A stretch of DNA of 64,000 bases from the NCBI GenBank assembly GCA_051751285.1, contig JBNJKT010000010.1:20006-84005 (forward strand). Direction: 5' to 3'. A model generated the notes under the pieces. That model saw nothing but the letters and a program-made list of their open reading frames with translations. It searched no databases and was not told the DNA's origin. The translations under genes were made by a program, and so were the position numbers. Numbering within the stretch: position 1 is the first letter of the stretch; the number at the start of each line of letters is the position of its first letter. Shown piece after piece: positions 3,165 through 59,141 of this stretch. The DNA is from Pseudomonadota bacterium. GTDB taxonomy: Bacteria > Pseudomonadota > Gammaproteobacteria > Pseudomonadales > Halomonadaceae.

Positions 3165-3239
3165 TGTAGGAGCCTTGCTTGCAAGGCGAAAAGCGGCGTC
3201 TTCCGGCGCACTCATCGCGCTGCAAGCAGAGCTCCTACA
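3165..3239. repeat. REP-like inverted pair (TGTAGGAGC..GCTTGC family)
   Basis: TGTAGGAGCCTTGCTTGCAAGG ... GCTGCAAGCAGAGCTCCTACA in inverted orientation. The same family occurs at 31168-31338 and 41565-41684. Confidence 0.6.
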
Positions 3240-3281
3240 CGGCGAATTCCGAGACCACTTTATGCGCTCGGCGCTTAAAGC

Positions 3282-4013
3282 TTATTCCTCGTCCACTTCC
3301 TCGGCGGCATCCTGGTGCGAGAGCCGCATGCCGGTCGGTGGTAGGGCAACGCCGTCGATGGTGGCGCTGTCGCCCTTGAGCTGCAGGCGCCCCTCCAGGA
3401 ACCAGCGCACGGCGATTGGGTAGATAAGGTGCTCCCGGGCCTGCACTTTCGCCTGGAGGCTGTCTTCCGTGTCGTCCTCGGTGACGGCCACCTCGGCCTG
3501 CAGAGCGACGGGCCCACCATCCAGTTCCTCGGTGACGAAGTGCACACTGCAGCCATGCAGGGCTACCCCATCGGCCAGGGCGCGGGCATGGGTATGCAGT
3601 CCGGGATAGTCCGGCAGCAACGACGGGTGGATGTTGAGCATGCGCCCCAGGAAACGGTTGACGAAGCGCGGCGTGAGAATGCGCATGAAGCCGGCCAGCA
3701 CGATCAGATCGGGTTCGTGCCGCTCGATGACCTTGATCAGGGCGCCATCGTAGGCGTCGCGGCTGTCGTACTCGCGATGCGGCAGGGCCACGGCATCGAT
3801 GCTCGCGTCCCGGGCACGCTTGAGTCCGTAGGCATCCGCTTGATTGGAGATCACCGCGACGATCTCGCCGCCCAGGGCGTCATGACGCTGGGCGTCGATC
3901 AGCGCCTGCAGGTTGCTGCCGCTGCCGGAGATCAGCACCACCACCCGGCGCGTCTCGCTGGGCTCGGGAGTGAAGGCGTTCAGGGTGTCGCTCTGATAGT
4001 CGGTGACGCTCAT
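3282..4013 (-). CDS. purN: phosphoribosylglycinamide formyltransferase
   Basis: VVVLISGSGSNLQALIDA and NIHPSLLP motifs; 243 aa. Confidence 0.93.
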   Translation of the reverse strand: MSVTDYQSDTLNAFTPEPSETRRVVVLISGSGSNLQALIDAQRHDALGGEIVAVISNQADAYGLKRARDASIDAVALPHREYDSRDAYDGALIKVIERHEPDLIVLAGFMRILTPRFVNRFLGRMLNIHPSLLPDYPGLHTHARALADGVALHGCSVHFVTEELDGGPVALQAEVAVTEDDTEDSLQAKVQAREHLIYPIAVRWFLEGRLQLKGDSATIDGVALPPTGMRLSHQDAAEEVDEE

Positions 4014-4079
4014 CAGATTTGCGCGGGATACCCGGTACTTTTAGTGCCGGGAGGGATAGCGCGTCGCCCGCAGGGCGAC

Positions 4080-5450
4080 CTATGGCACCGCTCGTCCCGC
4101 TCCTCCTTTTACGTGGGTGGATGGTGTCTGATGATAGCCGTAGCCATCACCGCGTTGAATCAGGATGCAGTGGCGGTATGAGATACCCTGCACGGCCCCT
4201 TCGGGGGTCTGGATGTTGAAACTGCCCGTCTTGCGCACGGCTACACGGCCCGTATGCGTACCGGCCTTCTTGCCGGTGGGCACGATGGCTCGCACCATGT
4301 CGCCGGTCTGGAATCCCTTTACCTGCTTCTGGCGCGTCAGGTAGCCACGCGGAAAGCCGTGCCGGGTGAGACGGGTGCGCTGGTAGCTGCCACGCCCCAT
4401 GGCCTTGATGATCAGCGCGGGGCGACTTGCATCGTAGAGCCGGTCGAACGGGCCGACGCAGGCGGCATCCAGGGCATGGGTTTTCGGGAGGTCAAGTCGC
4501 TGGCGGTTGTACTTGGTCAGGCCGCCGCTACCCACGCTGACAGGCAATTCAGTCGCCTTAAGTGCCTGGAACAGTGCCCAGCGCGTGGTGTTGACGGCGG
4601 TGGCATCGCGTAGCGGCTGCTTGAGCTGGCGCTGTATGCGTTCCCGCCGGGCCTCCGCCGCCAGGCCATTGGCCTTGAGGCGCTTCTTGAGTCCGCTGTC
4701 CTGGCGGAAGAAGGCGTCCAGTGAGTTGTTGTCCTTGGCCTGGTTGCAGGTGTGGCAACTTAGCGTCAGGTTGCTGATGCAGTTCGAGCCACCACGCGAG
4801 CGCGGCAGTACATGCTCCACTTCCAGCGGCGTGTCCTTGTCGCCGCAGTAGGCACACTCGCGGCCCCATTTCGCCAGCAGGTACTCGCGGACCTCGTAGC
4901 CCAGAAGCGTGCCTTGCTGGTATTCGACGTCGGAGATGTCGGGATTGTCGAGCTTCTGGGTATCAAAGCGCACCAGCTCCTGGCTGACGGCGGTGATCGG
5001 CGTCAGGCGGGTCAGCCGGTTGACCCAGGCCAGGACGGTATCGATGCGGTGTTGGAGGCTTGGCGCCAGCCAGCCGTCGCGTCGCGTGCGATTGTCGAAG
5101 CGCGGCGCCCGGTAGCGCAGGTTCTGGCTGCGCCGCCGGCGGCGAAACGCCCGGCGCTGATCCAGCGCCTGGCGGATCTGGAGGCCGCGATGCATCAGCT
5201 CGAACAGGCACAGGATATGGCGCTGGCCATCGTCGCTTTCGCGCATCAGTGCCAGCCCGGTGGTGCGACTGCCGGGATCGAGGCCCAGGCGCAGTGGCTG
5301 TCTCTCGCCACCCGCCCGATGCTTGAGCCGGATCGTGAACGGGTAGCGGCGATGCACCACCGCACGGCCTCGCTGAAGCAGCAGCCTTGCGCGCTTTTCG
5401 CTGCAAGGCATCAACGGCTGCTTCTGTTTGTCCAGTACGAAAACCGCCAT
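4080..5450 (-). CDS. iscB: IscB-type RNA-guided nuclease (RRXRR/HNH/split RuvC)
   Basis: Domain order read from the translation: PLMP (KQKQPLMPC), RuvC-I (LGLDPGSRTTGLAL) and an Arg-rich bridge helix (RRAFRRRRRSQNLRYRAPRFDNR). Then RuvC-II (VSQELVRFD), HNH (CAYCG..EVEHVLPRSRGG..NLTLSCHTCNQAKDN) and RuvC-III (KTHALDAACVG). The C-terminus has a TID-like segment (GFQTGDMVRAIV..GRVAVRKTGSFNI). The ATG at 5450 lies 7 nt after a GGAG Shine-Dalgarno sequence. Confidence 0.88.
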   Translation of the reverse strand: MAVFVLDKQKQPLMPCSEKRARLLLQRGRAVVHRRYPFTIRLKHRAGGERQPLRLGLDPGSRTTGLALMRESDDGQRHILCLFELMHRGLQIRQALDQRRAFRRRRRSQNLRYRAPRFDNRTRRDGWLAPSLQHRIDTVLAWVNRLTRLTPITAVSQELVRFDTQKLDNPDISDVEYQQGTLLGYEVREYLLAKWGRECAYCGDKDTPLEVEHVLPRSRGGSNCISNLTLSCHTCNQAKDNNSLDAFFRQDSGLKKRLKANGLAAEARRERIQRQLKQPLRDATAVNTTRWALFQALKATELPVSVGSGGLTKYNRQRLDLPKTHALDAACVGPFDRLYDASRPALIIKAMGRGSYQRTRLTRHGFPRGYLTRQKQVKGFQTGDMVRAIVPTGKKAGTHTGRVAVRKTGSFNIQTPEGAVQGISYRHCILIQRGDGYGYHQTPSTHVKGGAGRAVP

Positions 5451-5733
5451 GGCGATCTCCTTCGTGTTAGCGCCCTTACGGGCCTGGTGACGCGGATCGT
5501 TCGATCCGTCTCCCCTCGGGAATGTCGGCAACCGGCTCCTGCGTTTGTGCAGCGATCAGAACCTTCGGCGTTTTACCTTGCGCCCGAGGCGGCATACCGC
5601 AGCATGATCCTGACCTTCCAGTGCCCACCGCTGAGGAAGCACGGTGGGGTGGGTCTTGGCGACCTGTTGCCAACTTAGCGGGCAAATGCCGCTCTCCCTG
5701 GTCAACCCAGCTTGCTTTAACAAGCTCCCGCCT
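5451..5733 (-). ncRNA. candidate omegaRNA (guide + scaffold) of the IscB element
   Basis: Non-coding, directly 5' of iscB on the same strand and dense in hairpins on the minus strand. Examples: CCCACCG-N11-CGGTGGG, GACGGATCG-AA-CGATCCGCGTC, GCCC-GTAA-GGGC (GNRA loop), AGCTTG-TTAAAG-CAAGCT and AGCGG-N7-CCGCT. Position and size match known IscB omegaRNAs. Confidence 0.5.
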
Positions 5734-6822
5734 TCAGGTGGGGGTAGTTGACGCCTTGAGGTTCTCCAGCTGGACCTGCTCATCGGCATTGCCCCGTGCG
5801 GTGATTTCACCGATGCGGTGAACCGTCTCGCCGAGGGCTTGCAGATGGGCACGGGCTTGATCGGCCTTTTCCGCCGGGACGACGATGACCATACCGATGC
5901 CGCAGTTGAGTACGCGGTGCATCTCCCTCTCATCGACGTTGCCCCGCGTCTGGAGCCAGTCGAACACCGCCGGGCGCGTCCAGCTGGACGTATCGATGCG
6001 CGCCGCCAGAGTCTCGGGTAGTACACGGGGGAGGTTCTCGAGCAGGCCGCCCCCGGTGATGTGCGAGAGAGCATGCACCGGGATGTCGGTCTCCTTGAGC
6101 AACGACAGCAGCGGCTTGACGTAAATTCGCGTGGGCGCGAGCAGGGCCTCGCCGAGCGACCGGCCGTCGATGGCGGTATCCAGCGCCGACTCGCTGACCT
6201 CAAGGATCTTGCGGATCAGCGAGTAGCCGTTAGAGTGGGGGCCGGAGGATGCCATGCCCAGCAGTACGTCACCCTCGCCGACCTGCTTGCCGTCGAGGAT
6301 CTTCGATTTTTCCACCACGCCAACGCAGAAGCCGGCGAGGTCATAGTCGCTGCCCTCGTACATGCCAGGCATCTCGGCCGTCTCGCCGCCCACCAGGGCG
6401 CAGCCGGCCCGCTCGCAGCCCTCACCGATACCGGTCACCACATCGGCGGCGATATCCACGTCCAGCTTGCCCGTGGCATAGTAGTCAAGGAAGAACAGTG
6501 GTTCCGCCCCGGCCACCACCAGATCGTTGACGCACATGGCCACCAGGTCGATGCCGATGGTGTCATGGCGGCCCAGGTCCATGGCCAGGCGCAGCTTGGT
6601 GCCGACGCCGTCGGTGCCGGAGACCAGCACGGGCTCCCGGTAGCCGGCCGGCAGTTCGCACAGCGCGCCGAAACCGCCCAGCCCGCCCATGACCTCGGGG
6701 CGGGATGTGCGTTTGGCGACGCCCTTGATGCGATCGACCAGGGCATTGCCGGCATCGATGTCGACGCCGGCATCCTTGTAACTGAGCGACGCCCCGCTAG
6801 GGCGATGGGTGGAATCGGTCAT
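5734..6822 (-). CDS. purM: phosphoribosylformylglycinamidine cyclo-ligase (AIR synthetase)
   Basis: [22 protein letters not shown]..., 362 aa. Confidence 0.95.
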
Positions 6823-6947
6823 GACGCTTCCTGTATGAAATGGCGGTCGCAGGACGACGCGCAGCGGTCAGATTGGGGCAGAGAATTGTAGCATCACGGC
6901 GCGCAGCTGGCAGCCGGTCCAGCCACGCCGCACACAGGGAGGAGACG

Positions 6948-8027
6948 ATGCACAGGCAGTGGTGGGTGGTGGCCGCAGTCGCGGCGATAGGGTTGTGGTT
7001 CGTGATCAGTATCGAGCCGGTGCTGATGCCTTTCTTCGTCAGCATGATCCTGGCCTATCTGGGCGATCCCCTGGCCGACCGCCTCGAGGCTCGCGGCCTC
7101 TCGCGTCGCCTTGCGGTTTCGCTGGTATTCCTGCTGCTTTCGCTTGCTATCGTGCTCACCTTGCTGTTGGTGGTGCCGATACTGGGCCGACAGCTTGGCC
7201 AGCTGATCGAATCGCTGCCGGCGGTGCTCAACTGGCTCCAGCAGACGGTGGTGCCACATATTCAGGCACTGACAGGCATGGACCTCTCCACCGATATCGA
7301 CCAGATGCGTCAGGCGATCGTCGACAACTGGAAGGAGACCGGGACCTTCGCCGCCACTGTGCTGGCGCAGGCCTCGCGTTCCGGCCTGGCGCTGGTCGCC
7401 TGGATCGGCAACCTGGCGCTGATCCCCGTGGTCACCTTCTACCTGCTGCTGGACTGGGACGTTCTGGTCGCTAAGCTGCGCGGCTTGCTCCCGCGCAGCT
7501 GGGAGCCGGCGGCGGCTCGCCTTGCCGGTGAATGTGACGAGGTGCTGTCCGCCTTCCTGCGCGGCCAGCTGATCGTCATGCTTTGCCTCGGCGTGATCTA
7601 TGCGGTGGGGTTGACCCTGCTCGGCGTACGTTTCGGCCTGCTGATCGGCCTGCTCGCGGGGCTGGCCAGTATCGTCCCCTACCTCGGGGTGATCGTGGGG
7701 ATCTCGGTGGCCGGGGTAGTGGCGTTCTTCCAGTTCGGCGACTGGTTGATACTGCTCGGCGTCGCGGGGGTGTTCGGTTTCGGTCAGCTGGTGGAGAGCG
7801 TGGTGCTGCAGCCCAAGTTGCTTGGTGACAAGATCGGTCTGCATCCGGTGGCCGTGATCTTTGCCGTGCTGGCCGGAGGACAGCTGTTCGGATTCACCGG
7901 GGTGTTGCTGGCGCTGCCCGTGGCCGCCGTGCTGATGGTAGTGTTGCGTTATCTCTTCGAGCACTACAAGAACAGCACCTTGTATGACGCCGGACGTGAA
8001 CGTGGCCACGACGAGGAGTCGCCATGA
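6948..8027 (+). CDS. AI-2E family (PerM-like) transporter
   Basis: Polytopic membrane protein. The ATG at 6948 is preceded by AGGGAGGAG. The position upstream of hda matches Pseudomonas-type synteny. Confidence 0.85.
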   Translation: MHRQWWVVAAVAAIGLWFVISIEPVLMPFFVSMILAYLGDPLADRLEARGLSRRLAVSLVFLLLSLAIVLTLLLVVPILGRQLGQLIESLPAVLNWLQQTVVPHIQALTGMDLSTDIDQMRQAIVDNWKETGTFAATVLAQASRSGLALVAWIGNLALIPVVTFYLLLDWDVLVAKLRGLLPRSWEPAAARLAGECDEVLSAFLRGQLIVMLCLGVIYAVGLTLLGVRFGLLIGLLAGLASIVPYLGVIVGISVAGVVAFFQFGDWLILLGVAGVFGFGQLVESVVLQPKLLGDKIGLHPVAVIFAVLAGGQLFGFTGVLLALPVAAVLMVVLRYLFEHYKNSTLYDAGRERGHDEESP

Positions 8028-11504: not shown

Positions 11505-12314
11505 TCAGAGCGCCTTGCGACGCAGCAGGCCGGTAATTCCCTCGCCGATCAGCACCAGTACGACGATGGCGATCAGGATGGTGGCGACCGTCTGCCAGGC
11601 GAAAGTGTCGATGGAGCCCTGCAGGATCACGCCGATACCGCCGGCCCCGACCAGCCCGAGTACCGTGGACTCGCGGATGTTGATGTCCCAGCGCAGGATA
11701 ACGATGGCGAAGAAGGCCGGCATCACCTGGGGGACGACGGCATAGGCGATCACCTTCGCCTTGGAGGCCCCCGTTGCTTCCATGGCTTCCACCGGGCGAC
11801 GGTCGATCTCCTCGATGGCTTCACCCATCAGCTTGCCGATGAAGCCCACCGAGCGGAACATGATGGCCAGTATCCCGGCCAGCACCCCGGGGCCGAATAT
11901 CGCCACGAAAAGCAGCGCCCAGATGATGGTGTTCACCGAGCGGCTGGAGACCAGGATGAAGCGCCCCAACCACAGGCAGGCACGATTGGGCGTGGTGTTC
12001 TGGGCGGCGATATAGGAGACCGGCAGGGCGATGAAGATGGTCAGCATGGTGGCAAGCGTGGCGATATGCACGGTCTCGATCATGGCATTGACTATCTCGC
12101 CGAGGCGGCTCGGGTCCGGCGGCCACATGCGTCCCCCCAGACTCGAGATCTGATTGGGGGCATCCCAGACCCAGGGCCAGAAGATGTCGATGTCGCGGAC
12201 TGCCCAGACAACCAGCATCAGCGTCACCAGCATCACGGCGTAGCGGATGAGTTGCTCTCTGGGATTGTGGCGTCGCCAGATGCGATCGGCGAGCAGGTCG
12301 GCATCCTTTACCAT
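11505..12314 (-). CDS. phnE: phosphonate ABC transporter permease
   Basis: PhnE-like polytopic protein, last gene of the phnDCEE cluster. Confidence 0.82.
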   Translation of the reverse strand: MVKDADLLADRIWRRHNPREQLIRYAVMLVTLMLVVWAVRDIDIFWPWVWDAPNQISSLGGRMWPPDPSRLGEIVNAMIETVHIATLATMLTIFIALPVSYIAAQNTTPNRACLWLGRFILVSSRSVNTIIWALLFVAIFGPGVLAGILAIMFRSVGFIGKLMGEAIEEIDRRPVEAMEATGASKAKVIAYAVVPQVMPAFFAIVILRWDINIRESTVLGLVGAGGIGVILQGSIDTFAWQTVATILIAIVVLVLIGEGITGLLRRKAL

Positions 12315-13123
12315 ATCTTCTTCCTTACCCAGCCGCTGACGCCCTCGCTGATCAGGATCACGGCAATGATCACCAGCAGGATGGCGAAGGCGAAATCATA
12401 GTCATAGCGCCCGAAGGCATTCATCAGGGTGCTGCCGATGCCGCCTGCGCCAACGATACCCACCACCGCGGAGGCGCGCAGGTTGCTGTCGAGCTGGTAC
12501 ATGGAGAGCCCCACCTGACGCGGCAGGATCTGCGGGAAGACGGCATAGTAGAGCGTGGCCAGATAGCCGGCGCCCGTGGCGCGCATGGCCTCGACCTGGC
12601 CCCAGTCGATCTCCTCGATCTCCTCGGCGAGCAGCTTGCCGACGAAGCCGATGGAGTAGAGGGTCAGGGTCAAAATTCCCGCCAAGGGGCCGAAGCCCAC
12701 CGCGGCGACGAAGAGGATAGCGACGATTACCGGATGGAAGCTGCGCGAGACGATGATCACCGATCGCCCCAGTAGGTAGACGGGCAAGGGCGCGATGTTG
12801 CGTGCCGCCATCACCGCAAAGGGGATCGACAGCAGCACCCCGAGCAGAGTAGCGAGGATGGCGATCTGCAGGCTCTCCGTGAAGCCGGTCAGCAGCAGGT
12901 CGAAGCGCGAGAAGCTTGGCGGGAAGCCGCCGCCGAAGATACGCGCCGCCCGGGGCAGCCCTTCGCTGATGCGTTCCCAGTTGAAGGGCAGGGTGGCGAA
13001 GGCCCACACCAGATAGAACGCCAGCACTGCCAATAGACCATAGCGCAGCAGGGGATTGGCGATGAAGGGCGGCTTGCGCCAGGTCCGCGGCGTTGACGTG
13101 GTGGTACTGTCAGGTCGCGTCAT
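12308..13123 (-). CDS. phnE: phosphonate ABC transporter permease
   Basis: Second PhnE paralog. The ATG at 13123 (MTRPDSTT..) overlaps the phnC stop. The longer listed ORF start was rejected. Confidence 0.78.
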   Translation of the reverse strand: MTRPDSTTTSTPRTWRKPPFIANPLLRYGLLAVLAFYLVWAFATLPFNWERISEGLPRAARIFGGGFPPSFSRFDLLLTGFTESLQIAILATLLGVLLSIPFAVMAARNIAPLPVYLLGRSVIIVSRSFHPVIVAILFVAAVGFGPLAGILTLTLYSIGFVGKLLAEEIEEIDWGQVEAMRATGAGYLATLYYAVFPQILPRQVGLSMYQLDSNLRASAVVGIVGAGGIGSTLMNAFGRYDYDFAFAILLVIIAVILISEGVSGWVRKKIW

Positions 13124-13925
13124 GGCGGACCTCTTCTCCGGATGCTTGCGAGCCGTCCTGCGGGGTGGCGGTCTCGTCCTCCGGCGATTCGATACCACCG
13201 TAGATGGCGTCCAGTGCCTCCTGGTCGAAGTCGGCGGGGGCGCCATCGAAGATCATGGTGCCGTGTCGCAGACCGACGATACGGTCGGTATAGGCCCTGG
13301 CCTGGGCCACGTTGTGAATGTTGATCAGCACCGGCAGCGACAGCTCGCTGGCCAGGCTCTGCAGCAGCACCATGATCTGTTCTGAGGTACGCGGGTCCAG
13401 GGAGGCCGTGGGCTCGTCGGCCAGCAGCACCTCCGGTTCCTGCATCAGGGCGCGCACCACGCCAACCCGCTGGCGCTCGCCGCCGGAGAGTTCATCGGCG
13501 CGCTTGTTGGCGTAGTGGGCGATACCCACCCGCTCCATCAGCTTGAAGGCGCGCTCGATATCCGTGGCAGGGTAGCGGCGGCTGATGGCCTGGAAGAGGC
13601 TGACATAGCCCAGTCGGCCGGAGAGCACGTTCTCCATCACGGTAAGGCGATCGATCAGATTGAAGCCCTGGAAGACCATGCCGATCTTGCGTCGGGCACG
13701 TCGCAGTTCGCCATGCCTGAGATCGACGAGTTCGGTGCCGTTGAGCTTGATCGAGCCCGAGGTAGGCTCGACGAGTCGATTGATGCAACGGAGCATGGTG
13801 CTCTTGCCGGCGCCAGAGGCACCGACGATGGCCACCACGCTGTTGTCCTCTACGCTCAGATCGAGCCCCTTGAGTACGGGCTCGTCGTGTCCGTAGCGCT
13901 TGATCAGGTTGGATATCTCTAGCAT
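13110..13925 (-). CDS. phnC: phosphonate ABC transporter ATP-binding protein
   Basis: Walker A GASGAGKST, LSGGERQRV signature, and the MLEISNLIKRYG N-terminus typical of PhnC. Confidence 0.88.
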   Translation of the reverse strand: MLEISNLIKRYGHDEPVLKGLDLSVEDNSVVAIVGASGAGKSTMLRCINRLVEPTSGSIKLNGTELVDLRHGELRRARRKIGMVFQGFNLIDRLTVMENVLSGRLGYVSLFQAISRRYPATDIERAFKLMERVGIAHYANKRADELSGGERQRVGVVRALMQEPEVLLADEPTASLDPRTSEQIMVLLQSLASELSLPVLINIHNVAQARAYTDRIVGLRHGTMIFDGAPADFDQEALDAIYGGIESPEDETATPQDGSQASGEEVRHDAT

Positions 13926-15726: not shown

Positions 15727-17295
15727 TCAGGCACTGCGTAGCGACCGCGACGGGTCCCGAGCAGCGCCGACACGCTCGGCAGGAGGGAGCGGGCTGTCCT
15801 CGCCCAGGCCAAGGCGATCGTTCAGGTAGTTGGCCAGGCGCCGGGTCTGGACGGCATTGAGGTGCAGCGCCAGCTTGGTCCGCCGCCACAGGATGTCCTC
15901 CAGCGACCGTGCCCACTCCTGTTCGACCAGGTAATCCACCTCAGCAGCGGTCAGGCCGGCGCCGAAGGCCGGCCCCAGGGCGGACTGGGACCCCTTGTCG
16001 TCGAGGAAGATGCGGCACAGCGACCCGTAGGTGCGCGCATAGCGGCGCGCCTGGAAGGCATCCAGGAACGGATACTCCTCGAGCAACTGCGCCGCGAAGG
16101 TGGCCTGGTCACCGATATCGCCACCGGGCAGCGGCGTCTCCTCCGTCCAGGGGGCGGTCATCGCCGGCAAGTGAGGCGCGAGCATTTCTAGCACCGCTTC
16201 GGCCAGCTTGCGATAGGTGGTGATCTTGCCGCCGAACACCGAGAGCAGCGGCGCGCCCCGGGTATCGAGGTCCAGGGTGTAGTCGCGCGTCATGGCCGAG
16301 GGGGCGGTGGATTCGTCATCGCACAGCGGGCGCACCCCGGAGAAGGTGCGGATCACGGCGCTGCGCGCAAGCTGGGTGCGGAAGTGGGTGTTGACCACCG
16401 AGAGCAGGTAGTCGATCTCTTCCTCGCTGGCTTCGACGCGCGACGGGTCCCCTTCGTAGCGGCGATCGGTGGTGCCGATCAGGCTGAAGTCTTCCTCGTA
16501 GGGCAGCACGAAGACGATGCGCCGATCGCTGTTCTGCAGGATGTAGGCGCGGTCGTCGCGATTCAGGCGAGGCACGATGAGGTGGCTACCCTGGATCATG
16601 CGAACAGCGTAGCGCGACTGACGTTGCGCCTGGTGGCGTACCACCTGCTCGACCCAGGGACCAGCCGCGTTGACCAGCGTTCGACAGCGGCGAGTCAGGC
16701 GCTGGCCGGAGTCGATTTCCTCGAGGGCCACTTCCCACTCGCCGTCGACTTCCCGGGCGCCTGTACAGCGTGTGCGAACCCGAATCTCGGCCCCGTTGCG
16801 GCGGGCCTGGATGGCGTTGAGTACCACCATGCGGGCGTCCTCCACCCAGCAGTCCGAGTATTCGAAGCCGCGGGTAATGTCCGTGGCCAGGCCCTGATGC
16901 GCTGAGAGCCTGACACTGCGCGAGCCCGGTAACGTCTCGCGCTTGCCGAGATGGTCGTAAAGAAACAGACCGGCCCGAAGCATCCAGGCCGGTCGCAGGT
17001 GCGGACGATGCGGCAGGATGAAGCGCAGTGGCCAGATGATATGGGGCGCCTTGGCAAGCAGTACCTCGCGCTCGCGAAGGGCTTCGCGCACCAGCCGAAA
17101 TTCATGGTGCTCCAGGTAGCGAAGGCCACCGTGGATCAGCTTGCTGCTGGCCGAGGAGGTGGCGCCGGCGAGGTCCCCCTGTTCGCACAGTCCGACCGAC
17201 AGGCCGCGCCCGGCCGCATCATTGGCGATACCGGTGCCGTTGATGCCGCCGCCGATCACGAAGAGGTCGAGTACTTCATCTGATGTGTTATCCAT
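15727..17295 (-). CDS. glpD: aerobic glycerol-3-phosphate dehydrogenase
   Basis: FAD fold DLFVIGGGINGTGIANDAAGRG, 522 aa, downstream of glpR. Confidence 0.9.
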   Translation of the reverse strand: MDNTSDEVLDLFVIGGGINGTGIANDAAGRGLSVGLCEQGDLAGATSSASSKLIHGGLRYLEHHEFRLVREALREREVLLAKAPHIIWPLRFILPHRPHLRPAWMLRAGLFLYDHLGKRETLPGSRSVRLSAHQGLATDITRGFEYSDCWVEDARMVVLNAIQARRNGAEIRVRTRCTGAREVDGEWEVALEEIDSGQRLTRRCRTLVNAAGPWVEQVVRHQAQRQSRYAVRMIQGSHLIVPRLNRDDRAYILQNSDRRIVFVLPYEEDFSLIGTTDRRYEGDPSRVEASEEEIDYLLSVVNTHFRTQLARSAVIRTFSGVRPLCDDESTAPSAMTRDYTLDLDTRGAPLLSVFGGKITTYRKLAEAVLEMLAPHLPAMTAPWTEETPLPGGDIGDQATFAAQLLEEYPFLDAFQARRYARTYGSLCRIFLDDKGSQSALGPAFGAGLTAAEVDYLVEQEWARSLEDILWRRTKLALHLNAVQTRRLANYLNDRLGLGEDSPLPPAERVGAARDPSRSLRSA

Positions 17296-17468: not shown

Positions 17469-18227
17469 TTAGGCGATATGCAGTGTCACATCGTGCTGCT
17501 TCAGGAGGCGCAGGATGGCCTCGGGCGGCTCGCGGTCAGTGAACAGGGCGTCGAGCTGTGCCAGGTTGCCCTGACGCACCACCGGGTTACGCTGGAACTT
17601 GGAGTGATCGGTGGCCAGGAAGATCTTTCGGGAATTGCGGATAATGGCCTGGGCGACGCGCACTTCCTGGTAGTCGAACTCCAGCAGGGAGCCATCCTCG
17701 TCGATGCCGCTGATGCCGATGATGCCGTAGTCGACCTTGAACTGATTGATGAAGTCGATAGTTGCCTCGCCGATGATGCCGCCATCCCGGGAGCGGACCT
17801 CGCCGCCGGCGATGATCACATTGAAGTCATCCTTGTGCTGGAGGATCGCCGCCACGTTGAGGTTGTTGGTGATCACCTCCAGTCCCTGGTGGTCCAGCAG
17901 CGCCTCGGCGATGACCTCGTTGCTGGTCCCGATGTTGATGAACAGCGACGAGTGGTCGGGAATATGTCGAGCGAGCAGCTCGGCGATTCGCTGCTTGGCC
18001 TCGAGGTTGAGGGTCTTGCGTGTCGAGTAGGCGGTATTGACGGTGCTCGACTCCAGGCCTGCGCCACCGTGAACCCGGCGAATGCGCCCTTCGGTAGAGA
18101 GCGTGTTGAGGTCGCGACGAATGGTCTGGGGCGTGACCGTAAAATGCTCGGTGAGCTGCTCGATGCTGGCATACCCCTGGCGGCGCACCAGCTCGATGAT
18201 GGCGTCCTGGCGTTGCTGCTGGTTCAT
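17469..18227 (-). CDS. glpR: DeoR-family glycerol-3-phosphate regulon repressor
   Basis: MNQQQRQDAIIELVRRQGYASIEQLTEHFTVTPQTIRRDLNTL (DeoR HTH) plus a sugar-phosphate-binding C-terminal domain. Confidence 0.85.
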   Translation of the reverse strand: MNQQQRQDAIIELVRRQGYASIEQLTEHFTVTPQTIRRDLNTLSTEGRIRRVHGGAGLESSTVNTAYSTRKTLNLEAKQRIAELLARHIPDHSSLFINIGTSNEVIAEALLDHQGLEVITNNLNVAAILQHKDDFNVIIAGGEVRSRDGGIIGEATIDFINQFKVDYGIIGISGIDEDGSLLEFDYQEVRVAQAIIRNSRKIFLATDHSKFQRNPVVRQGNLAQLDALFTDREPPEAILRLLKQHDVTLHIA

Positions 18228-18479
18228 GGCATCTCCTTGGTTAAGCATGATTCTACTGCATTTTCGCTGCTTGGGGGATGGTCATGCAGACGTGGAGTCG
18301 TTAACTGCGACGAGTCTTCCTGCTCTCTACAACCGCCATTGCGCCATGACCCTCTTTATCAGGATCTCGCGTTTACATGATTCGAGAACCTGTGAGCTCA
18401 GGCAGAGTGATCGAATGTGAAAAGAAGCGGCAATTTAAAGTTGCAAAAACAACACGGGGGCGTCACGATTCGGGTGGGG

Positions 18480-19713: not shown

Positions 19714-21291
<1,578 letters not shown>

Positions 21292-23292: not shown

Positions 23293-23369
23293 AGGACCAT
23301 AGCTCAGTTGGTTAGAGCGCCACGTTGACATCGTGGAGGTCGGCGGTTCAAATCCGCCTGGTCCTACCA
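23293..23369 (+). tRNA. tRNA-Val (anticodon GAC)
   Basis: Manual cloverleaf: AGGACCA/TGGTCCT acceptor, GCTC/GAGC D stem, CCACG/CGTGG anticodon stem with loop TTGACAT, GGCGG/CCGCC T stem with TTCAAAT, and encoded CCA. Confidence 0.93.
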
Positions 23370-23393: not shown

Positions 23394-23470
23394 AGGACCA
23401 TAGCTCAGTTGGTTAGAGCGCCACGTTGACATCGTGGAGGTCGGCGGTTCAAATCCGCCTGGTCCTACCA
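23394..23470 (+). tRNA. tRNA-Val (anticodon GAC), identical second copy
   Basis: Identical 77-nt sequence, 24 nt after the first copy. Confidence 0.93.
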
Positions 23471-25085: not shown

Positions 25086-25739
25086 TCACTTGTGATCGCT
25101 CTTGCGCACCAGATAATCCCCCAGACTCTGGAAGCCCTGGACCATCACCACCAGGATCACCACGGTGATCAGCATGATGGTGGGATTAAAGCGGTTGTAG
25201 CCGTAGCGGATGCCCAGGTCGCCCAGGCCGCCGCCGCCCACGGCGCCGGCCATGGCCGAGTAGCTGACGAGGGTGACGGCCGTCACAGTGAGCGCCGTGA
25301 AGATGCCGCCGCGCGCCTCGGGGACCAGCACCTTGGTGATGATCTGCCAAGGCGTGGCGCCCATGGACTGGGCGGCCTCGACCAGGCCCGGGGGGATCTC
25401 GTTGAGGGCGCCCTCGACAAGGCGCGCCACGAAGGGGATGGCGGCGATGGTCAGGGGAACGGCGGCGGCATTGGTGCCGATCGACGAACCGACCAGCATC
25501 CGCGTGAAGGGGATGATCGCCACCATCAGGATGATGAAGGGGATCGAGCGGCCGATGTTGGTGACCGCCCCCAGCACCCGGTTGAGCGTCGGCTCGGCGA
25601 GTATCTGTCGTGGCCGAGTGACGTAGAGCAGCACACCCAGCGGGATACCCACCAGGGCCGAGATCACTCCCGATACGCCTACCATGTAGAGCGTGTCCAG
25701 GGTGGCCTTGAGGATCAGATCAATCATCGCGCTGGACAT
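25086..25739 (-). CDS. metI: methionine ABC transporter permease
   Basis: MetI-like 5-TM permease. The start at MSSAMIDLIL overlaps the metN stop. Confidence 0.88.
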   Translation of the reverse strand: MSSAMIDLILKATLDTLYMVGVSGVISALVGIPLGVLLYVTRPRQILAEPTLNRVLGAVTNIGRSIPFIILMVAIIPFTRMLVGSSIGTNAAAVPLTIAAIPFVARLVEGALNEIPPGLVEAAQSMGATPWQIITKVLVPEARGGIFTALTVTAVTLVSYSAMAGAVGGGGLGDLGIRYGYNRFNPTIMLITVVILVVMVQGFQSLGDYLVRKSDHK

Positions 25740-26778
25740 GGCCGAGCACCTCCACCTGCAGGTCGTGGGATTCGAGATAGTCAAGGGCCTCGCGGGTCTT
25801 CTCTGCGGGGCCCATCAGTTCGGCGATCATCAGCCCCAGGGTGCGCTCCTGGATCGACTCCACCTTGGCCTGGAGGATGCTGACGTCCACGCTGCACTCC
25901 CTCGCCAGCCGCGAGATCAGCGGGGTCGAGACGGCATCGCCCGAGAAGGCCAGGCGAACCACCGGGTGGCTGTGTGGCCCGGGTGTCTCCTCGAGACGCT
26001 CGATCAGGGCGCGGGGCGGGTCGAGTTCCAGAAAGTCGTTGAGGAAGTCGCGCCCCAGTCGGGTATTCGGCGCGGTAAAGAAGTCGCCGACGTCGGCTTC
26101 CTCGACCAGTTCGCCATCGGAGATCAGGCTGACCCGGTGGCAGATCGACTTCACCACCTCCATCTCATGGGTGATCAGCAGGATGGTCAGGCCGAGCTTG
26201 GAGTTGATGTCGCGCAGCAGGTCCAGGATCGACCCGGTGGTATGGGGGTCAAGGGCCGAGGTGGCCTCGTCGCAGAGCAGCACCTTGGGCCGGCTGGCCA
26301 ATGCCCGGGCGATGGCCACCCGCTGCTTCTGGCCGCCCGAGAGCTGTGCCGGGTACTGCTTCGCCTTGTCGGCCAGGCCCACCAGTTCCAGCAGGGGGGT
26401 GACCCGCTCGCGGATCTCGCCGCGCTTCATTCCCATCAATTCCAGCGGCAGGGCCACGTTGGCAAACACCGTGCGCGAGGTCAGCAGGTTGAAGTGCTGG
26501 AAGATCATGCCGATGCGGTGGCGCGCCTGGTTGAGGGCCGCCCCGGAGAGGGCCGTCAGCTCCTGGCCGTCAACGGTGACGCTGCCTGTGGTGGGGCGTT
26601 CGAGCAGGTTGACGCAGCGGATCAGGGTGGACTTGCCGGCCCCGGAGAGGCCGATCACGCCATGGATCCGGCCCTGGGGGACGTGGAGGTCGGCATGCTT
26701 GAGCGCCGTCACGGCCGGCGTGCCGCTGCGCCGCCCCTTGGGGTAGTAGGTCTTGGAAACGTCGTGGAGTCGAATCAT
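25720..26778 (-). CDS. metN: methionine ABC transporter ATP-binding protein
   Basis: MIRLHDVSKTYY.., Walker A GLSGAGKST, LSGGQKQRVAIARAL, and a C-terminal NIL/ACT-like domain. The ATG at 26778 is preferred over the listed longer ORF. Confidence 0.9.
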   Translation of the reverse strand: MIRLHDVSKTYYPKGRRSGTPAVTALKHADLHVPQGRIHGVIGLSGAGKSTLIRCVNLLERPTTGSVTVDGQELTALSGAALNQARHRIGMIFQHFNLLTSRTVFANVALPLELMGMKRGEIRERVTPLLELVGLADKAKQYPAQLSGGQKQRVAIARALASRPKVLLCDEATSALDPHTTGSILDLLRDINSKLGLTILLITHEMEVVKSICHRVSLISDGELVEEADVGDFFTAPNTRLGRDFLNDFLELDPPRALIERLEETPGPHSHPVVRLAFSGDAVSTPLISRLARECSVDVSILQAKVESIQERTLGLMIAELMGPAEKTREALDYLESHDLQVEVLGHVQRDD

Positions 26779-33499: not shown

Positions 33500-33500
33500 T

Positions 33501-34593: not shown

Positions 34594-34601
<8 letters not shown>
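33501..34601 (+). CDS. ABC transporter ATP-binding protein 2 (rhizobial GlpT-like)
   Basis: MAEITLKSLAHTY.., Walker A GPSGCGKST. The ATG at 33501 follows the upstream stop directly. Confidence 0.88.
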
Positions 34602-35475
<874 letters not shown>

Positions 35476-35476
35476 C

Positions 35477-36370
<894 letters not shown>

Positions 36371-36381
36371 GGAGACGCGAC

Positions 36382-36654: not shown

Positions 36655-36711
36655 CAGAAACGCATGGAGCCGAATGTCCACGGACGGACTACCACAACTC
36701 AAGAGGTCAAT

Positions 36712-38454
<1,743 letters not shown>

Positions 38455-38601
38455 TGGTCGGGCGGGTCGTCTGACCCGCCCTCTCCTTTCCCCGGCGTTG
38501 CCGGGGCGACGTCAGTGCGTGTAACCGGTTGCCTGAACGGGACCCAGGGCCCCGCTCGGTGCAGTCCGAGCGGGGCCCGTTGCTTTGAAAAAGGGCCAGA
38601 C

Positions 38602-47317: not shown

Positions 47318-47357
47318 GCCGACACTATCGCTTGGCCGAGGCCGGCATCATGACATG

Positions 47358-54999: not shown

Positions 55000-55148
55000 T
55001 CTCGCGCTGACTCATTGCCCTGGAGGGGATGAGCACGGAGACTGGCATCCGCGTTCGAAGCGCCGCATCATCCTGGGTATCACCACAAGGGCGTGACGGG
55101 CCGGCGGCTGCCCGGCACCGCGTCGATCATGTGCAGGGAGCAAGGTTC

Positions 55149-58100
55149 ATGCCGTTCAAGACCCGTGATATCGCCCTGGACAGCTGGCTGCTGATGGTGT
55201 CGGCCGCCTTCGTGCTGATGGGGCTGGCGGGGATGATGCAGTGGCTTGACGACGCCTTGCCGACGCTGCTGGCCACGGACGCCGCGCTGGCCATCTTGCT
55301 GTGCGGGGCTGGCCTGGTTGCCGTGGTGCAGTGCTGGCCGCGGTTACGCCTTCTGGCGGGTGGCGCCCTGCTGGCCTTGATGGGCTATATCCTGCTGTAC
55401 AACACCCTCATTGGCCCCGGTCAGTCGAGCCTCTACTGGCTGCCCGGGGAGCCGCGGGTATCCCCGCTGTCGGCCGTCTTGCTGGTGGGGGTGGCCAGCT
55501 GTCTGCTGTCAGGGCTCGATCGCCCAGGCCGGCGTCGGCTGTGGCAGCTGTGCGGCTGCCTGCTGCTCTTGATCGGGGCCCTGGTGCTGGGTGCCACGCT
55601 CTTGCTCCCGGCGGATGGCCCGGGCCTGGCGGACATGATCTCGTCTCCGCCGGGGGTCGCCCTGTTCACGCTGACGTATGGCAGTGCCATGGTCGCGGCG
55701 AGTGTCAGAACGCGCTACAGGAAGCTCCAGTTGGGAAGAGCGGCCGTGACGGCCGGCCTGGTCGGCGTGCTGGCCAGCAGTCTGGCGTGGTACCTGCTGG
55801 GCTGGCAACAGCAGCAACGGACGAATCAGCAGGCGGAATTCCTGCTCGACAACGTTCGTTTCAATGCCGAGCAGGTGATGGAGTCCCACCTGACGCTGAT
55901 GCAGCGCATGGCCGAGCGCCTGGATGCCTCCGCTTCGGGACTGGAACCCGCCGTACGCCAGCGCGATGTGGCCAATAATCTGCGCGATACGCCGAGTCTT
56001 GAGGTCATCGGCCTTTTGAGCCGCGACCAGGACTGGCTGTGGCGTCAGGCGCGCAGCCGTGAGGCTCAGGCGTGGCTGGCAGAATGGACGGATGCCGAGC
56101 GCGTGCAGGACTGGTTGAGCATGCCGTTTCCCGAGCCGCGCATGATGGTGCCGGATGACAGCACACCTGGCATGGCGATCATGGCGATCGCGGTACCGAG
56201 TCGTGACCAGCAGCTGGTGGCCGTGCTGGACATGGCGACCCTCCTCGAGCAAGGGCTGCGTATTCAACTGGTGGGTTTCCAGGTCAACCTCTCCCGTGAC
56301 GCCGAGCTGATCACCGCCCTGGCGGCGCGGGGCATGAGAGCGCGGGAGGTGAGTGACGCTTCCCGCCTTGCCGTTCGCCACATCGGCCTGCCGGGTGGCA
56401 CCATGCTCAGCCCTTCGGTGCACCCCGGTGGCGAGGCGAACTGGCTGCAGGCGGGGCTGGTGCCTTCAGCCGTTGGCCTGGGTGGGCTGACACTGAGCTA
56501 TCTGCTGGTCTTCAGCCTGGGGATGGTGCGCCTGGCCCTGGGGCATTCCCGGAACCTGATGGCTGCCCGGGAGCAGCTCGAGCAGCAGCAATCCATCCAG
56601 GCGATGATCGCCGAGGAGGTGCCGGTCGATCGGATCCTGGAGTCCATCTGCACCATGCTCGAGAGGCAGCTGCCGGGGGGGTTATGCTCGATCATGCTGG
56701 CTGACGACGAAGGCCACACCTTGCGCCTGGTGGCGGGTAACAGTCTGCCGGTCAGCTTCCGTGAGGCGCTCGGCTCGATTCCCATCGGGGCCGGCGTGGG
56801 GACCTGTGGCAGCTCGGCCCATGGCCGTGAAGTCGTGATCTGTGAGGATATCGAGCATGACCCGCGCTGGGAGGGGTTCAAGTCGCTGGCTACCGACGCG
56901 GGGCTCCTGGCCTGCTGGTCCTATCCGGTGATCGCCAGTGAGGGTCGCCTGTTGGGGACCTTTGCGACCTACTATCGCCGCCCGGGCAAGCCGGGAAATA
57001 CCGAGCTCGAAAGGACGCGACAGGCCGTGGATCTGGTGGCGCTGGCCGTGGAGCGTGAGCAGGACAGGCGTTCGTTGTGGGAGAGTGAGCAGCGCTACCG
57101 TTCGTTGTTTGTCTATAACCCGGATGCGGTGTTTTCACTCGACCTGCAGGGCCACTTTGTTTCCGCCAATGCGCATTGTGCCGAGTTTACCGGTTTCTCC
57201 GTCGAACAGATCATAGGTAAGCACTTTTCTCGATTCCTGAACCCGAACGACCTTGCCTACGTGCAACAGAAATTCGAGATCACGTTGGACGGTGAACCCT
57301 GCCGCTATGAGCTGCAGATTCCTCATCGGGACGGCAAGATGCGCCGTCTGGATCTCACCAATCTGCCGATCGTTGTCGGCCAGCGAATCAAGGGTGTCTA
57401 TGGCATCGCCAAGGATGTGACCCAGCGGCGCGAGCACGAGACCCGATTGCGGATTCTCGAGCGCAGCGTGCAAGCCAGCGTCAACGGAGTATTGATCGCT
57501 GATGCGGAACAGCCCGATCTGCCGATCATCTATGCCAATGACGCCTTCCAGCGCATGACCGGGTATTCGCGAGAGGAGGTCATCGGCCGCAATTGCCGTT
57601 TTCTGCAGGGCGCCGAGACCGATATGGCGGCGGTGCAGCAGATTCGCCAGCAGCTGGCCAGCCAGAGTGATGTGCATGTCACCCTGTGCAATTATCGCAA
57701 GGACGGCACCCCCTTCTGGAACGACCTCTTCATCGCGCCGGTGCGAGATGAAGCGGGTCGGGTCTCCCACTACGTGGGGATCCAGCATGATATCTCCGAG
57801 CACAAGGCCTATGAGGCCAGGCTGGCCTACCATGCCAGCCATGATGCCTTGACCGGGTTGCCGAACCGCTCGCTGCTGGAGGATCGACTTGTCCATGACT
57901 TTGCGCTGGCCAGGCGGCAGGGACACCTGCTGGCGGTGCTCTTCGTCGACCTCGACGAGTTCAAGCCGATCAACGACAGCCTGGGCCATGCCATAGGAGA
58001 CCAGCTGCTTAAGGGTGTTGCACAGCGACTCTCCGCGGCGATGCGTCCGGGCGATACGCTGGCGCGCCTGGGCGGCGACGAGTTCGTGATACTGCTGCCC

Positions 58101-59141
58101 GACCTGCACGACGAAGAGCAGGCGCTGCAGGTAGCCGAGCGGCTGCTGCCGATCATTGCCCGGCCCTATCGGATAGGTGAGCACGAGCTTTCGCTGTCGT
58201 GCAGTATCGGGATCGCGGTCAGCAACCCCGGGGTCTCCCAGGCCATCGAGCTTATCCAGCAGGCCGACATGGCCATGTACCGGGCCAAGCAGCAAGGGCG
58301 CAATGCCTACCAGTGGTTCACCCCCGAGATCACCCATCGGTTGGGGGATCGCGTCGCGTTGCGCAACGAGCTCCAGGAAGCGATCGATACCGAGGCCTTC
58401 GAGCTGCACTATCAGCCGTTGATCGATCGCCAGGGACGGGTCGCGAGCGTGGAGGCGCTGCTGCGCTGGTCCAACCCCTTACGCGGCGATGTCTCTCCCG
58501 CCCAGTTCATTCCCCTGGCCGAAGAGACCGGTCAGATCATTCCCATCAGCGAATGGGTGCTTTCCAGAGCCTGCCAGGACCTGCGCATGCTCGACCAGGC
58601 AGGACACGGCATCCTCAATGTCGCGGTCAACCTCTCGCCACTGCAGTTCCATCGTTCGAGCTTTCTCGGCAACCTGCGCCAGGCCCTGGCGGTGACCGGG
58701 CTGCCGGCGCCGAAGCTGTCACTGGAGCTGACCGAGGGCGTGCTGATGAACGATACGGAAAGTGCCATCGACATCTTGCATGCCCTCAGGGGCATGGGCG
58801 TGGGGGTGGCCATCGACGATTTCGGTACCGGCTTTTCCAGTCTCAGCTACCTCAAGAATCTGCCCGTCGACACGGTGAAGATCGACCGCAGCTTCGTCAG
58901 CGAAGTGACACGCAATGCGGAGGATGACGCCATCATCCAGGGCATCATCTCCATGGCGCATCACCTCGGGCTCAAGGTGGTCGCCGAAGGCATCGAGCAC
59001 GAAGCGCAGTACCGCCTGCTGATGGCCCATGGCTGCGACCTCTTTCAGGGCTTCCACCTTGCGCGGCCCATGCCGTTGGAGAGCCTCATCGAATTCATCG
59101 GCGCGTCACGCGCCCTCGACAGCATCGGACCGCGAGAATGA
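55149..59141 (+). CDS. multi-domain c-di-GMP signalling protein: N-terminal membrane sensor, GAF, PAS, LOV, GGDEF, EAL
   Basis: ATG at 55149 after GGGAG. GAF (..ACWSYPVIASEGRLLGTFATYY), LOV (IIYANDAFQRMTGYSREEVIGRNCRFLQGAETD), GGDEF (RLGGDEFVILL) and EAL (VEALLRW, DDFGTGFSSLSYL, KIDRSF). Confidence 0.85.
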   Translation: MPFKTRDIALDSWLLMVSAAFVLMGLAGMMQWLDDALPTLLATDAALAILLCGAGLVAVVQCWPRLRLLAGGALLALMGYILLYNTLIGPGQSSLYWLPGEPRVSPLSAVLLVGVASCLLSGLDRPGRRRLWQLCGCLLLLIGALVLGATLLLPADGPGLADMISSPPGVALFTLTYGSAMVAASVRTRYRKLQLGRAAVTAGLVGVLASSLAWYLLGWQQQQRTNQQAEFLLDNVRFNAEQVMESHLTLMQRMAERLDASASGLEPAVRQRDVANNLRDTPSLEVIGLLSRDQDWLWRQARSREAQAWLAEWTDAERVQDWLSMPFPEPRMMVPDDSTPGMAIMAIAVPSRDQQLVAVLDMATLLEQGLRIQLVGFQVNLSRDAELITALAARGMRAREVSDASRLAVRHIGLPGGTMLSPSVHPGGEANWLQAGLVPSAVGLGGLTLSYLLVFSLGMVRLALGHSRNLMAAREQLEQQQSIQAMIAEEVPVDRILESICTMLERQLPGGLCSIMLADDEGHTLRLVAGNSLPVSFREALGSIPIGAGVGTCGSSAHGREVVICEDIEHDPRWEGFKSLATDAGLLACWSYPVIASEGRLLGTFATYYRRPGKPGNTELERTRQAVDLVALAVEREQDRRSLWESEQRYRSLFVYNPDAVFSLDLQGHFVSANAHCAEFTGFSVEQIIGKHFSRFLNPNDLAYVQQKFEITLDGEPCRYELQIPHRDGKMRRLDLTNLPIVVGQRIKGVYGIAKDVTQRREHETRLRILERSVQASVNGVLIADAEQPDLPIIYANDAFQRMTGYSREEVIGRNCRFLQGAETDMAAVQQIRQQLASQSDVHVTLCNYRKDGTPFWNDLFIAPVRDEAGRVSHYVGIQHDISEHKAYEARLAYHASHDALTGLPNRSLLEDRLVHDFALARRQGHLLAVLFVDLDEFKPINDSLGHAIGDQLLKGVAQRLSAAMRPGDTLARLGGDEFVILLPDLHDEEQALQVAERLLPIIARPYRIGEHELSLSCSIGIAVSNPGVSQAIELIQQADMAMYRAKQQGRNAYQWFTPEITHRLGDRVALRNELQEAIDTEAFELHYQPLIDRQGRVASVEALLRWSNPLRGDVSPAQFIPLAEETGQIIPISEWVLSRACQDLRMLDQAGHGILNVAVNLSPLQFHRSSFLGNLRQALAVTGLPAPKLSLELTEGVLMNDTESAIDILHALRGMGVGVAIDDFGTGFSSLSYLKNLPVDTVKIDRSFVSEVTRNAEDDAIIQGIISMAHHLGLKVVAEGIEHEAQYRLLMAHGCDLFQGFHLARPMPLESLIEFIGASRALDSIGPRE

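Follow-up and report, generated by a model that had tools for sequence, protein, structure and literature searches.

What separates purM from purN in the Halomonadaceae bacterium from which contig JBNJKT010000010.1 (GenBank assembly GCA_051751285.1) was obtained? The two genes lie on the minus strand of the 64,000 nucleotides (nt) of this contig that were analysed (positions 20,006 to 84,005), which are referred to here as the window and are numbered from their first base. An earlier note on this DNA had suggested that an intact IscB (OMEGA) element is inserted precisely between them. As described below, the locus very probably consists of an intact, non-autonomous element of the IS200/IS605 type (ISC/OMEGA) that carries iscB and an omegaRNA and that is inserted at a TCAT/ATGA motif, where the stop codon of purM overlaps the start codon of purN.

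The only gene in the element is iscB. Its coding sequence (CDS; 4080..5450, minus strand) specifies 456 amino acids (aa) plus a stop codon and is preceded by an AAGGAG ribosome-binding site at 5462..5457. The predicted protein matches the NCBIfam equivalog NF040563, 'RNA-guided endonuclease IscB', with 444.4 bits against a cut-off of 175 over residues 3-333, and it covers the whole of the Pfam RRXRR profile PF14239 (profile positions 1-174 of 174; E = 5.5e-72). Three HNH models (PF01844, PF14279 and PF13395) match residues 199-250, and the HNH match has an E-value of 9e-11. With such RRXRR and HNH values, chance can be excluded as the source of this identification. Cas9 models gave 34-36 bits, which is far under their cut-offs of 100-375. 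Among proteins of known structure, a phmmer search placed TbaIscB, several OgeuIscB entries and HfmIscB first, followed by IsrB and small Cas9s. Likewise, when an AlphaFold2 (AF2) model made from 45 family sequences (mean pLDDT, the predicted local confidence score, 68.7) was compared with the PDB by Foldseek, the top nine matches were IscB or IsrB complexes, with E-values down to 3e-16, and Cas9s came next.

The residues expected of an active nuclease are also in place. D58, E158, H325 and D328 of the RuvC domain and H213 of the HNH domain align to D61, E193, H340, D343 and H247 of OgeuIscB (PDB 7XHT), which are the catalytic residues of that protein (Kato 2022). All five are invariant in 45 homologues that are 66-83% identical to the window protein, as are the zinc-binding cysteines C199, C202, C232 and C235 and residue N227. 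The P12-L13-M14-P15 stretch aligns to the PLMP motif of OgeuIscB (residues 14-17; Kato 2022); M14 and P15 are invariant in the same homologues, and P12 and L13 are at least 90% conserved. An arginine-rich bridge helix (R99-R121) lies between RuvC-I and RuvC-II. The HNH domain, with its catalytic histidine, is inserted between RuvC-II and RuvC-III, a feature that separates IscB from IsrB. The motifs quoted in the earlier note (KQKQPLMPC, LGLDPGS, an arginine-rich stretch, SQELVRFD, two CxxC pairs, EVEH and THALDAACVG) all occur in the translation. The ratio of non-synonymous to synonymous substitution (dN/dS) is 0.19 in comparison with the nearest homologue, whose CDS is 83% identical. Because the catalytic residues are kept and dN/dS is this low, iscB is regarded as intact, and it is under purifying selection.

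Judged by its translation, then, the minus-strand open reading frame (ORF) 5450..4080 is IscB. The earlier note had proposed profile searches with RRXRR (PF14239), HNH (PF01844) and published IscB models, and all of these matched; together with the PDB and Foldseek matches and the retained catalytic residues, they bear out its claim of an intact IscB. It had also named two results that would speak against that claim, and the opposite was found in both cases: the protein does not fall in another HNH family and its catalytic residues are not substituted. Its remark that annotation would label the gene merely as an HNH or RRXRR protein is outdated, as NF040563 names the protein and many homologues are labelled 'RNA-guided endonuclease IscB'. 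A start codon different from the one used here, the TTG at 5531 given by an ORF finder, was rejected for three reasons: the ATG at 5450 has AAGGAG 6 nt upstream, all 44 aligned homologues start with MAVFVLDK, and the interval 5531-5450 is conserved, structured omegaRNA and not coding sequence.

Several database sources label homologues as '5-methylcytosine-specific restriction endonuclease McrA' or 'HNH endonuclease', and such labels would suit an unrelated HNH enzyme, either a McrA-type restriction endonuclease or a homing endonuclease, that had come to lie between purM and purN by chance. This explanation is extremely improbable in view of the 444-bit match to the IscB equivalog, the RRXRR/RuvC halves on both sides of the HNH domain, the best structural matches to IscB, IsrB and Cas9, and the cognate RNA that is encoded upstream of the gene.

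This RNA is the omegaRNA scaffold (5472..5752, minus strand). It is made up of a match to the Rfam HEARO model RF02033 at 5752..5504, which is full length (positions 1-211 of 211; 100.7 bits against a gathering score of 83; E = 7.5e-21), and of two further conserved hairpins that extend to 5472. HEARO is the RNA now known as the omegaRNA of IscB. The match is the only one in the window, and its 3' end is 53 nt before the start of iscB on the same strand. In 19 loci aligned over the stretch that begins with HEARO and ends at the start codon of iscB, 43 of the 73 consensus pairs are kept through changes on both sides. A HEARO match over the gathering score was also found upstream of iscB in all 22 related loci that were scanned with Rfam. 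That RF02033 lacks downstream elements was likewise noted by Meers et al. (2023, 10.1101/2023.03.14.532601).

Where does the element begin and end? The two host genes are readily recognised, and the earlier note was right both about their identities and about their common minus-strand orientation. The upstream gene, purM (5734..6822, minus strand), encodes aminoimidazole ribonucleotide (AIR) synthetase and matches TIGR00878 with 475 bits; the downstream gene, purN (3282..4013, minus strand), encodes glycinamide ribonucleotide (GAR) transformylase and matches TIGR00639 with 247 bits. Both scores are above the cut-offs, and both proteins have the expected Pfam domains. A scan for PurM that took one genome per species gave 80 loci, and both genes were found in 77 of them. 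In all 77 relatives purM and purN are adjacent, with a gap of 0-250 nt and without iscB between them. This agrees with the statement in the earlier note that the two genes are normally neighbours. That note had added that the presence of the gene at this site in all relatives would point to an old domestication; the site is empty in all of the relatives examined.

Four of the loci (L001-L004) belong to the nearest relatives: Halomonas heilongjiangensis, with 88% PurM identity, Billgrantia antri, Vreelandella zhuhanensis (L003) and a metagenome-assembled genome of Halomonas. In all four, the empty junction is GGC^ATGAGC or GGC^ATGACC, where the caret marks the insertion point and the TGA stop of purM overlaps the ATG of purN. 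The consensus of the empty sites is …CTGGAGAAC(C/G)TC(G/C/T)(A/C)GGC^ATGA(G/C)C…. The occupied site in the window reads …CTGGAGAACCTCAAGGC^GTCAACTACC… at the upstream end of the element and …GCGCAAATCTG^ATGAGCGTC… at the downstream end. Comparison of these empty junctions with the occupied site defines the element as 5752..4014 (minus strand; 1739 nt), and its first base is position 1 of the HEARO model. The target is not duplicated, as the empty GGC^ATGAGC has become GGC^GTCAAC…TCTG^ATGAGC. The ends deduced from the empty sites coincide with the points where conservation stops in about 20 related elements.

The alignment of the junction with relatives, which the earlier note had recommended, therefore gave the exact ends, the guide flank and the target motif, and it supports a precise insertion between purM and purN in the orientation of the operon. 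The interval 4014-5733 that the note had assigned to the element is exact at 4014; the other end, however, is at 5752, which is 19 nt further into the present purM. These 19 nt (5734..5752, minus strand) are the first of the element and now form the 3' end of the purM ORF, in which they provide the G of an alanine codon followed by S-T-T-P-T and a stop codon.

Both ends of the element have subterminal hairpins, as in elements of the IS200/IS605 type. The end that adjoins the predicted target-adjacent motif (TAM), which is called 'LE' by Meers et al. (2023) and for which other authors swap the names LE and RE, occupies 4014..4079 (minus strand) and contains two hairpins at 4079..4063 and 4051..4031. 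Folded as DNA, it has an energy of -19.4 kcal/mol (z = -4.1). Its mean identity over 13 loci is 86%, and its stems have compensatory changes. It is 98.5% identical to the corresponding end of locus L081, although the coding sequences of the two elements are only 83% identical. This difference points to continuing selection on the sequence of the end, presumably for a role in transposition. The opposite end, on the omegaRNA side, forms a branched hairpin (z = -2.4), and its stems also have compensatory changes. The TAM-proximal 66-85 nt (window 4014-4079; L081-L098) include an invariant TCCCTCC similar to an anti-Shine-Dalgarno sequence, and a GGAGGAG occurs near the 3' end of iscB.

The flanks of the element suggest what the nuclease would recognise. 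The predicted guide is the 16 nt of purM 3' coding sequence directly 5' of HEARO position 1 (UGGAGAACCUCAAGGC; 5753..5768, minus strand), the length of 16 nt being assumed; the guide of OgeuIscB is 27 nt, of which 17 nt are resolved (Kato 2022). In 23 related loci, the 30 nt before GTCAAC have about 0.1 bit per column as compared with 1-2 bits inside the element, and this lack of conservation is as expected for a guide taken from flanking DNA. On the other side, the predicted TAM or target motif is ATGA (TCAT on the plus strand; 4010..4013, minus strand). It is host sequence that is present in the empty sites and consists of the purN start codon and one more base; formerly it also held the TGA stop codon of purM. 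ATGA is invariant beside the TAM-proximal end in every related element for which that end was located. HEARO elements reportedly integrate just upstream of ATGA or GTGA. The TAM of GstIscB, which was determined experimentally, is TTCAT on the same side (Meers et al. 2023).

Does the element stand alone? Fifty-two genes were called in the window with the aid of G+C content at third codon positions (GC3), and 50 of them plus two ORFs from the gaps were scanned with Pfam. The scan found no Y1 transposase, Cas1 or Cas2 in these genes, a result that does not extend to a 1,371-aa ORF (55029..59141) or to several gap ORFs of high GC3, including 12308..13252 and 25086..25814. A crude six-frame search with a regular expression for the HUH motif had no match in 55029..59141 or in the unscanned gap ORFs. 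Its single match in the window, antisense to a cupin-XRE gene, was judged to be spurious. The window contains neither CRISPR-like or other interspaced repeats nor a second copy of either element end. The earlier note had stated that the 64 kb have no CRISPR array, cas1/cas2 or tnpA and had described a stand-alone OMEGA module; the repeat search agrees with this, as does the Pfam scan for the 50 genes and two gap ORFs that it covered. Because tnpA was found neither in the element nor among the scanned genes, the element is classed as non-autonomous, like about 98.5% of iscB loci.

These searches also bear on another explanation, that the protein is a CRISPR-associated IscB or Cas9-like effector or else a nuclease-dead, RNA-guided regulator of the pur operon. 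CRISPR-associated IscBs and nuclease-dead regulators derived from TnpB are known from the literature. Such a role is scarcely credible here, since the window searches found no CRISPR repeats, cas1 or cas2, all of the catalytic residues are kept, and the guide has no match other than the junction into which the element is inserted.

Homologues of the window protein number in the thousands. The closest known one is 83% identical. Halomonas, Vreelandella and related marine gammaproteobacteria account for most of the best 120, of which many are named 'RNA-guided endonuclease IscB'. Among the related loci that were retrieved (five genomic and about 30 metagenomic), conservation starts exactly at GTCAAC, and the other end, wherever it was located, is …CGCGCAAA(A)TCTG followed by ATGA, with unrelated sequence beyond. 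The family appears to be mobile, as judged from at least 14 distinct insertion sites, paralogues within one genome, and copies on plasmids and phages. For example, V. zhuhanensis has an empty purM-purN site and yet has a 77%-identical IscB element elsewhere (L083), and Halomonas vilamensis has at least five IscB paralogues with pairwise identities of 85-92%. Relatives of 56-65% identity are found on plasmids, where PGAP names iscB, and in Ralstonia phages.

Some of the related loci display patterns of their own. In H. vilamensis (L084:2713-4440) and Vreelandella massiliensis (L085:2713-4449), the element has the same gene context (S1 protein, MvaT, AraC-type regulator, iscB, a 119-aa ORF, YacG and CoaE), and this points to an insertion that is old and that both species have inherited. 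Two metagenome contigs (L094:1-1837 and L095:1596-3432) are 100% identical over 1837 nt, that is, over 123 nt of upstream flank, the whole element and ATGAAAA, and they diverge completely right after the TAM. Either the assembly is chimeric here because of a repeat, or the DNA was truly rearranged at that end. In Pseudomonas veronii, a conjugative IncP plasmid (L142; NZ_CP142043.1 152709-157037) has a 61%-identical iscB in its transfer-gene region after traU, and the next gene on the same strand starts 52 nt past the iscB stop codon.

Several observations weigh against an intact, mobile element in the window. No TnpA was found among the scanned genes of the 64 kb. The AF2 model is of only moderate quality by its pLDDT, and its template modelling (TM) score to IscB structures is about 0.35. 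In the structural comparison that the earlier note had proposed, IscB and IsrB structures rank first and the global TM score is low. We attribute the low score to the placement of domains in a model without RNA and rely on the ranking, the E-values and the residue alignment. A C-terminal TAM-interaction domain (WED/TID) gave no sequence-profile match, and neither the profiles nor the alignments to PDB sequences continue much beyond residue 343. The family does conserve residues 334-456, and AF2 models them as rich in beta structure, with strands at 385-432 and patchy pLDDT. The length of the guide and the identity of the TAM were both read from the flanks. Finally, the insertion could be old in its lineage, because the nearest known relative is only 83% identical and look-ups of the exact IscB and PurN sequences of the window found no identical match, so that no strain-level empty allele was obtained.

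With regard to the missing transposase, iscB adjoins tnpA in only about 1.5% of cases and is biased to the strand of the upstream gene (Meers et al. 2023). A same-strand insertion without tnpA is thus the published norm for iscB and no peculiarity of this locus. Nevertheless, one could suppose that the copy is stranded or domesticated, immobile without a partner TnpA and kept either passively or because the host has come to depend on it for purN expression or for an RNA-guided function. The window scan found no tnpA, there is one copy in the 64 kb, the closest relative is only 83% identical, the GC3 of iscB (0.79) is that of the host, and the insertion common to L084 and L085 indicates that long-term retention occurs in this family. 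Against this, the nuclease residues are intact with dN/dS of 0.19, the identity of the transposon end is still 98.5% where that of the CDS has fallen to 83%, the site is empty in all sister species examined, and active iscB elements normally have no tnpA beside them. In our opinion, a stranded copy is quite unlikely, and an intact, non-autonomous IS200/IS605-type element remains the preferred explanation.

How would such an element maintain itself? The steps proposed here are adapted from published work on IscB (Altae-Tran 2021; Meers 2023; Kato 2022). Transcription of the omegaRNA would start at the purM promoter, outside the element, and enter the element by read-through; the 5' end of the RNA would therefore carry about 16 nt of purM as the guide, UGGAGAACCUCAAGGC. 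IscB and this omegaRNA would then recognise and cut the element-free junction, TGGAGAACCTCAAGGC^ATGA…, which could arise after excision by a TnpA encoded elsewhere or could be present on a sister chromosome. The cut would force repair from the occupied copy, and the element would be kept in place. The occupied locus itself would be immune, because GTCAAC and not the TAM follows the guide match. In the GstIscB system, the omegaRNA extends over the boundary of the transposon, and the nuclease cleaves the 'donor joint' that remains once TnpA has excised the element; its TAM, TTCAT, is identical to the motif beside the opposite end of the transposon (Meers et al. 2023).

A guide made of host sequence requires that transcription come in from beyond the element. 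The only promoter-like site in 3200..7200 is at 6913..6885 (minus strand), upstream of purM. Inside the element there are no promoter-like or terminator-like sites, the minus strand of 3200..7200 has no terminator-like site, and T-runs are lacking after the hairpins of the TAM-proximal end. These results are in line with the expectation in the earlier note that transcription is not terminated before purN. Read-through from purM into the omegaRNA, iscB and purN is therefore a plausible prediction. A purT gene in the genome would render purN dispensable, and 'essential', the word used in the earlier note, might then be an overstatement for this operon.

The insertion would also have affected the two host proteins. 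In relatives, PurM ends in …LEN(L/V)(E/P/S)A and stops at the ATGA overlap. The window purM is five codons longer and runs into the first omegaRNA stem, and so PurM is predicted to gain the five-residue tail STTPT. The same relatives have a GGAG 11-15 nt before the purN ATG, inside the tail of purM; in the window, this Shine-Dalgarno sequence and the ATGA at which the two genes were once coupled are now 1.74 kb away from purN. No replacement Shine-Dalgarno sequence was found in the last 20 nt of the element (-3.3 kcal/mol vs a background of -3.7). Presumably purN is still co-transcribed with purM, but without the ATGA coupling and without its Shine-Dalgarno sequence.

Is this position, directly before a start codon, peculiar to the purN locus? 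Sixteen element-bearing loci, which represent at least 14 distinct sites (L094 and L095 share one upstream flank), were surveyed for this feature. The flanking ATG opens an ORF that is at least 100 codons long or runs off the contig in 12 of the 16, as compared with 26.5% of all ATGA sites in the window (binomial p = 7e-5). When the sites are reconstructed without the element, nine of 16 have a Shine-Dalgarno-like motif at -16..-4, which is inside the guide, vs a background of 14% (p = 1e-4), and their mean pairing with the anti-Shine-Dalgarno sequence is -5.5 kcal/mol vs -3.7 (p = 0.004). On plasmids the pattern was present in one of the three copies inspected (the P. veronii IncP plasmid, where the element lies between traU and the next gene) and absent from the other two. 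In this IscB lineage, elements therefore usually sit like a wedge between a Shine-Dalgarno sequence and the start codon that it serves, in front of a gene on the same strand; the arrangement is frequent and not universal. A bias of this kind may have been described for HEARO elements as early as 2009.

The simplest explanation of this position is the combination of an ATGA target, the need for incoming transcription and selection against disruption of genes. One might go further and suggest a 'start-codon wedge', in which the ATGA TAM and external transcription of the guide set the position and the conserved end, which lacks a Shine-Dalgarno sequence, tunes translation of the displaced gene, for example by re-initiation after iscB. 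This suggestion is speculative and on balance rather unlikely. If it were true, the element would rewire expression of the host operon instead of being neutral cargo.

Apart from iscB, the scanned genes of the window are those of an ordinary chromosome and include mrp/apbC, dcd, an AI-2E family transporter, hda, fumarase, glp and moa/moe genes, ABC and TRAP transporters and GGDEF/EAL proteins. A few features may be mentioned. Two identical tRNA-Val(GAC) genes are in tandem at 23293-23369 and 23394-23470, 101 nt from start to start. Three paralogous genes that resemble FAD-dependent glycerol-3-phosphate dehydrogenase (DAO + DAO_C) lie within 25 kb, at 15727-17295 (-), 21408-23087 (+) and 38515-40212 (+), and near them are glpK (19786-21291), a DeoR regulator (17469-18248) and a sugar-type ABC transporter (32411-38454). 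ORF 45009-45869 is a fusion of MoaC with a ThiS/MoaD-like domain in a mobB-moeA-moaC/D-moaE-moaA cluster. An H-NS-like ORF (47354-47869) in the gap between moaA and an RNase J-like gene has a GC3 of 0.60 vs 0.75-0.9 for its neighbours. The protein of ORF 323-1519 is rich in Glu, Ala and Gln and of the coiled-coil type, its gene has 21- and 42-nt tandem repeats at 471-534 and 835-921, and its Pfam match is sub-threshold.

With regard to significance, IscB/omegaRNA elements, HEARO RNA, the logic of the TAM, the scarcity of tnpA and the same-strand bias have all been published, and this element is a routine member of the family. Little is changed for the field, and the protein already receives its name from NCBI's pipeline. 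The locus is a clean textbook example, with an empty site in sister species, ends known to the base, a readable guide and TAM, and the stop/start overlap in a conserved operon as the target. As a natural test case, it is convenient for asking whether the omegaRNA is produced by read-through from a host operon and how a downstream gene copes once it is separated from its ribosome-binding site. A compact IscB of 456 aa with a simple predicted TAM of 4 nt may also hold minor interest for tool development.

How does the element compare with known systems? Type II CRISPR-Cas systems have an array and cas1/cas2 nearby, and the window searches found neither. The HEARO model RF02033 (Weinberg et al. 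2009) matches over its full length directly upstream of the HNH ORF and on the same strand, and the alignment of related loci adds two conserved 3' hairpins (to 5472). The closest elements are those of other Halomonadaceae, for example the ones that encode P0002 (GCA_001564335.1, L081) and P0020 (V. zhuhanensis, L083). Their proteins are 77-83% identical to the window protein, and they are of like size (1.72-1.75 kb) with like ends (GTCAAC… and …CGCGCAAA(A)TCTG^ATGA); they differ in location, being found before lipA, cobO, a FAD oxidase gene and others, and none of those retrieved is at purM-purN.

Two characterised systems may be compared with it as well. GstIscB of ISGst5 (Meers et al. 2023) likewise belongs to a non-autonomous IS200/IS605-type element and takes its guide from flanking DNA. 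Its host is a Firmicute and its partner TnpA has been demonstrated, whereas none is known for the window element. Its TAM beside the opposite end, TTCAT, is ATGAA on the sense strand of iscB and fits the ATGA seen here, and the model of donor-joint cleavage would carry over directly. OgeuIscB with its omegaRNA (PDB 7XHT, 7UTN and 8CSZ; Kato 2022; Schuler 2022) is only about 20% identical to the window protein over the structural alignment and is longer (496 vs 456 aa), and its TAM is NWRRNA, as compared with the predicted ATGA directly 3' of the target here. The two proteins have the same order of domains, namely PLMP, RuvC-I, bridge helix, RuvC-II, HNH and RuvC-III, followed by a C-terminus that is modelled as beta-rich in the window protein. 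The catalytic D/E/H/D residues and the HNH histidine align, OgeuIscB is among the best fold matches, and in both systems a HEARO-type omegaRNA with a 5' guide lies upstream of the gene.

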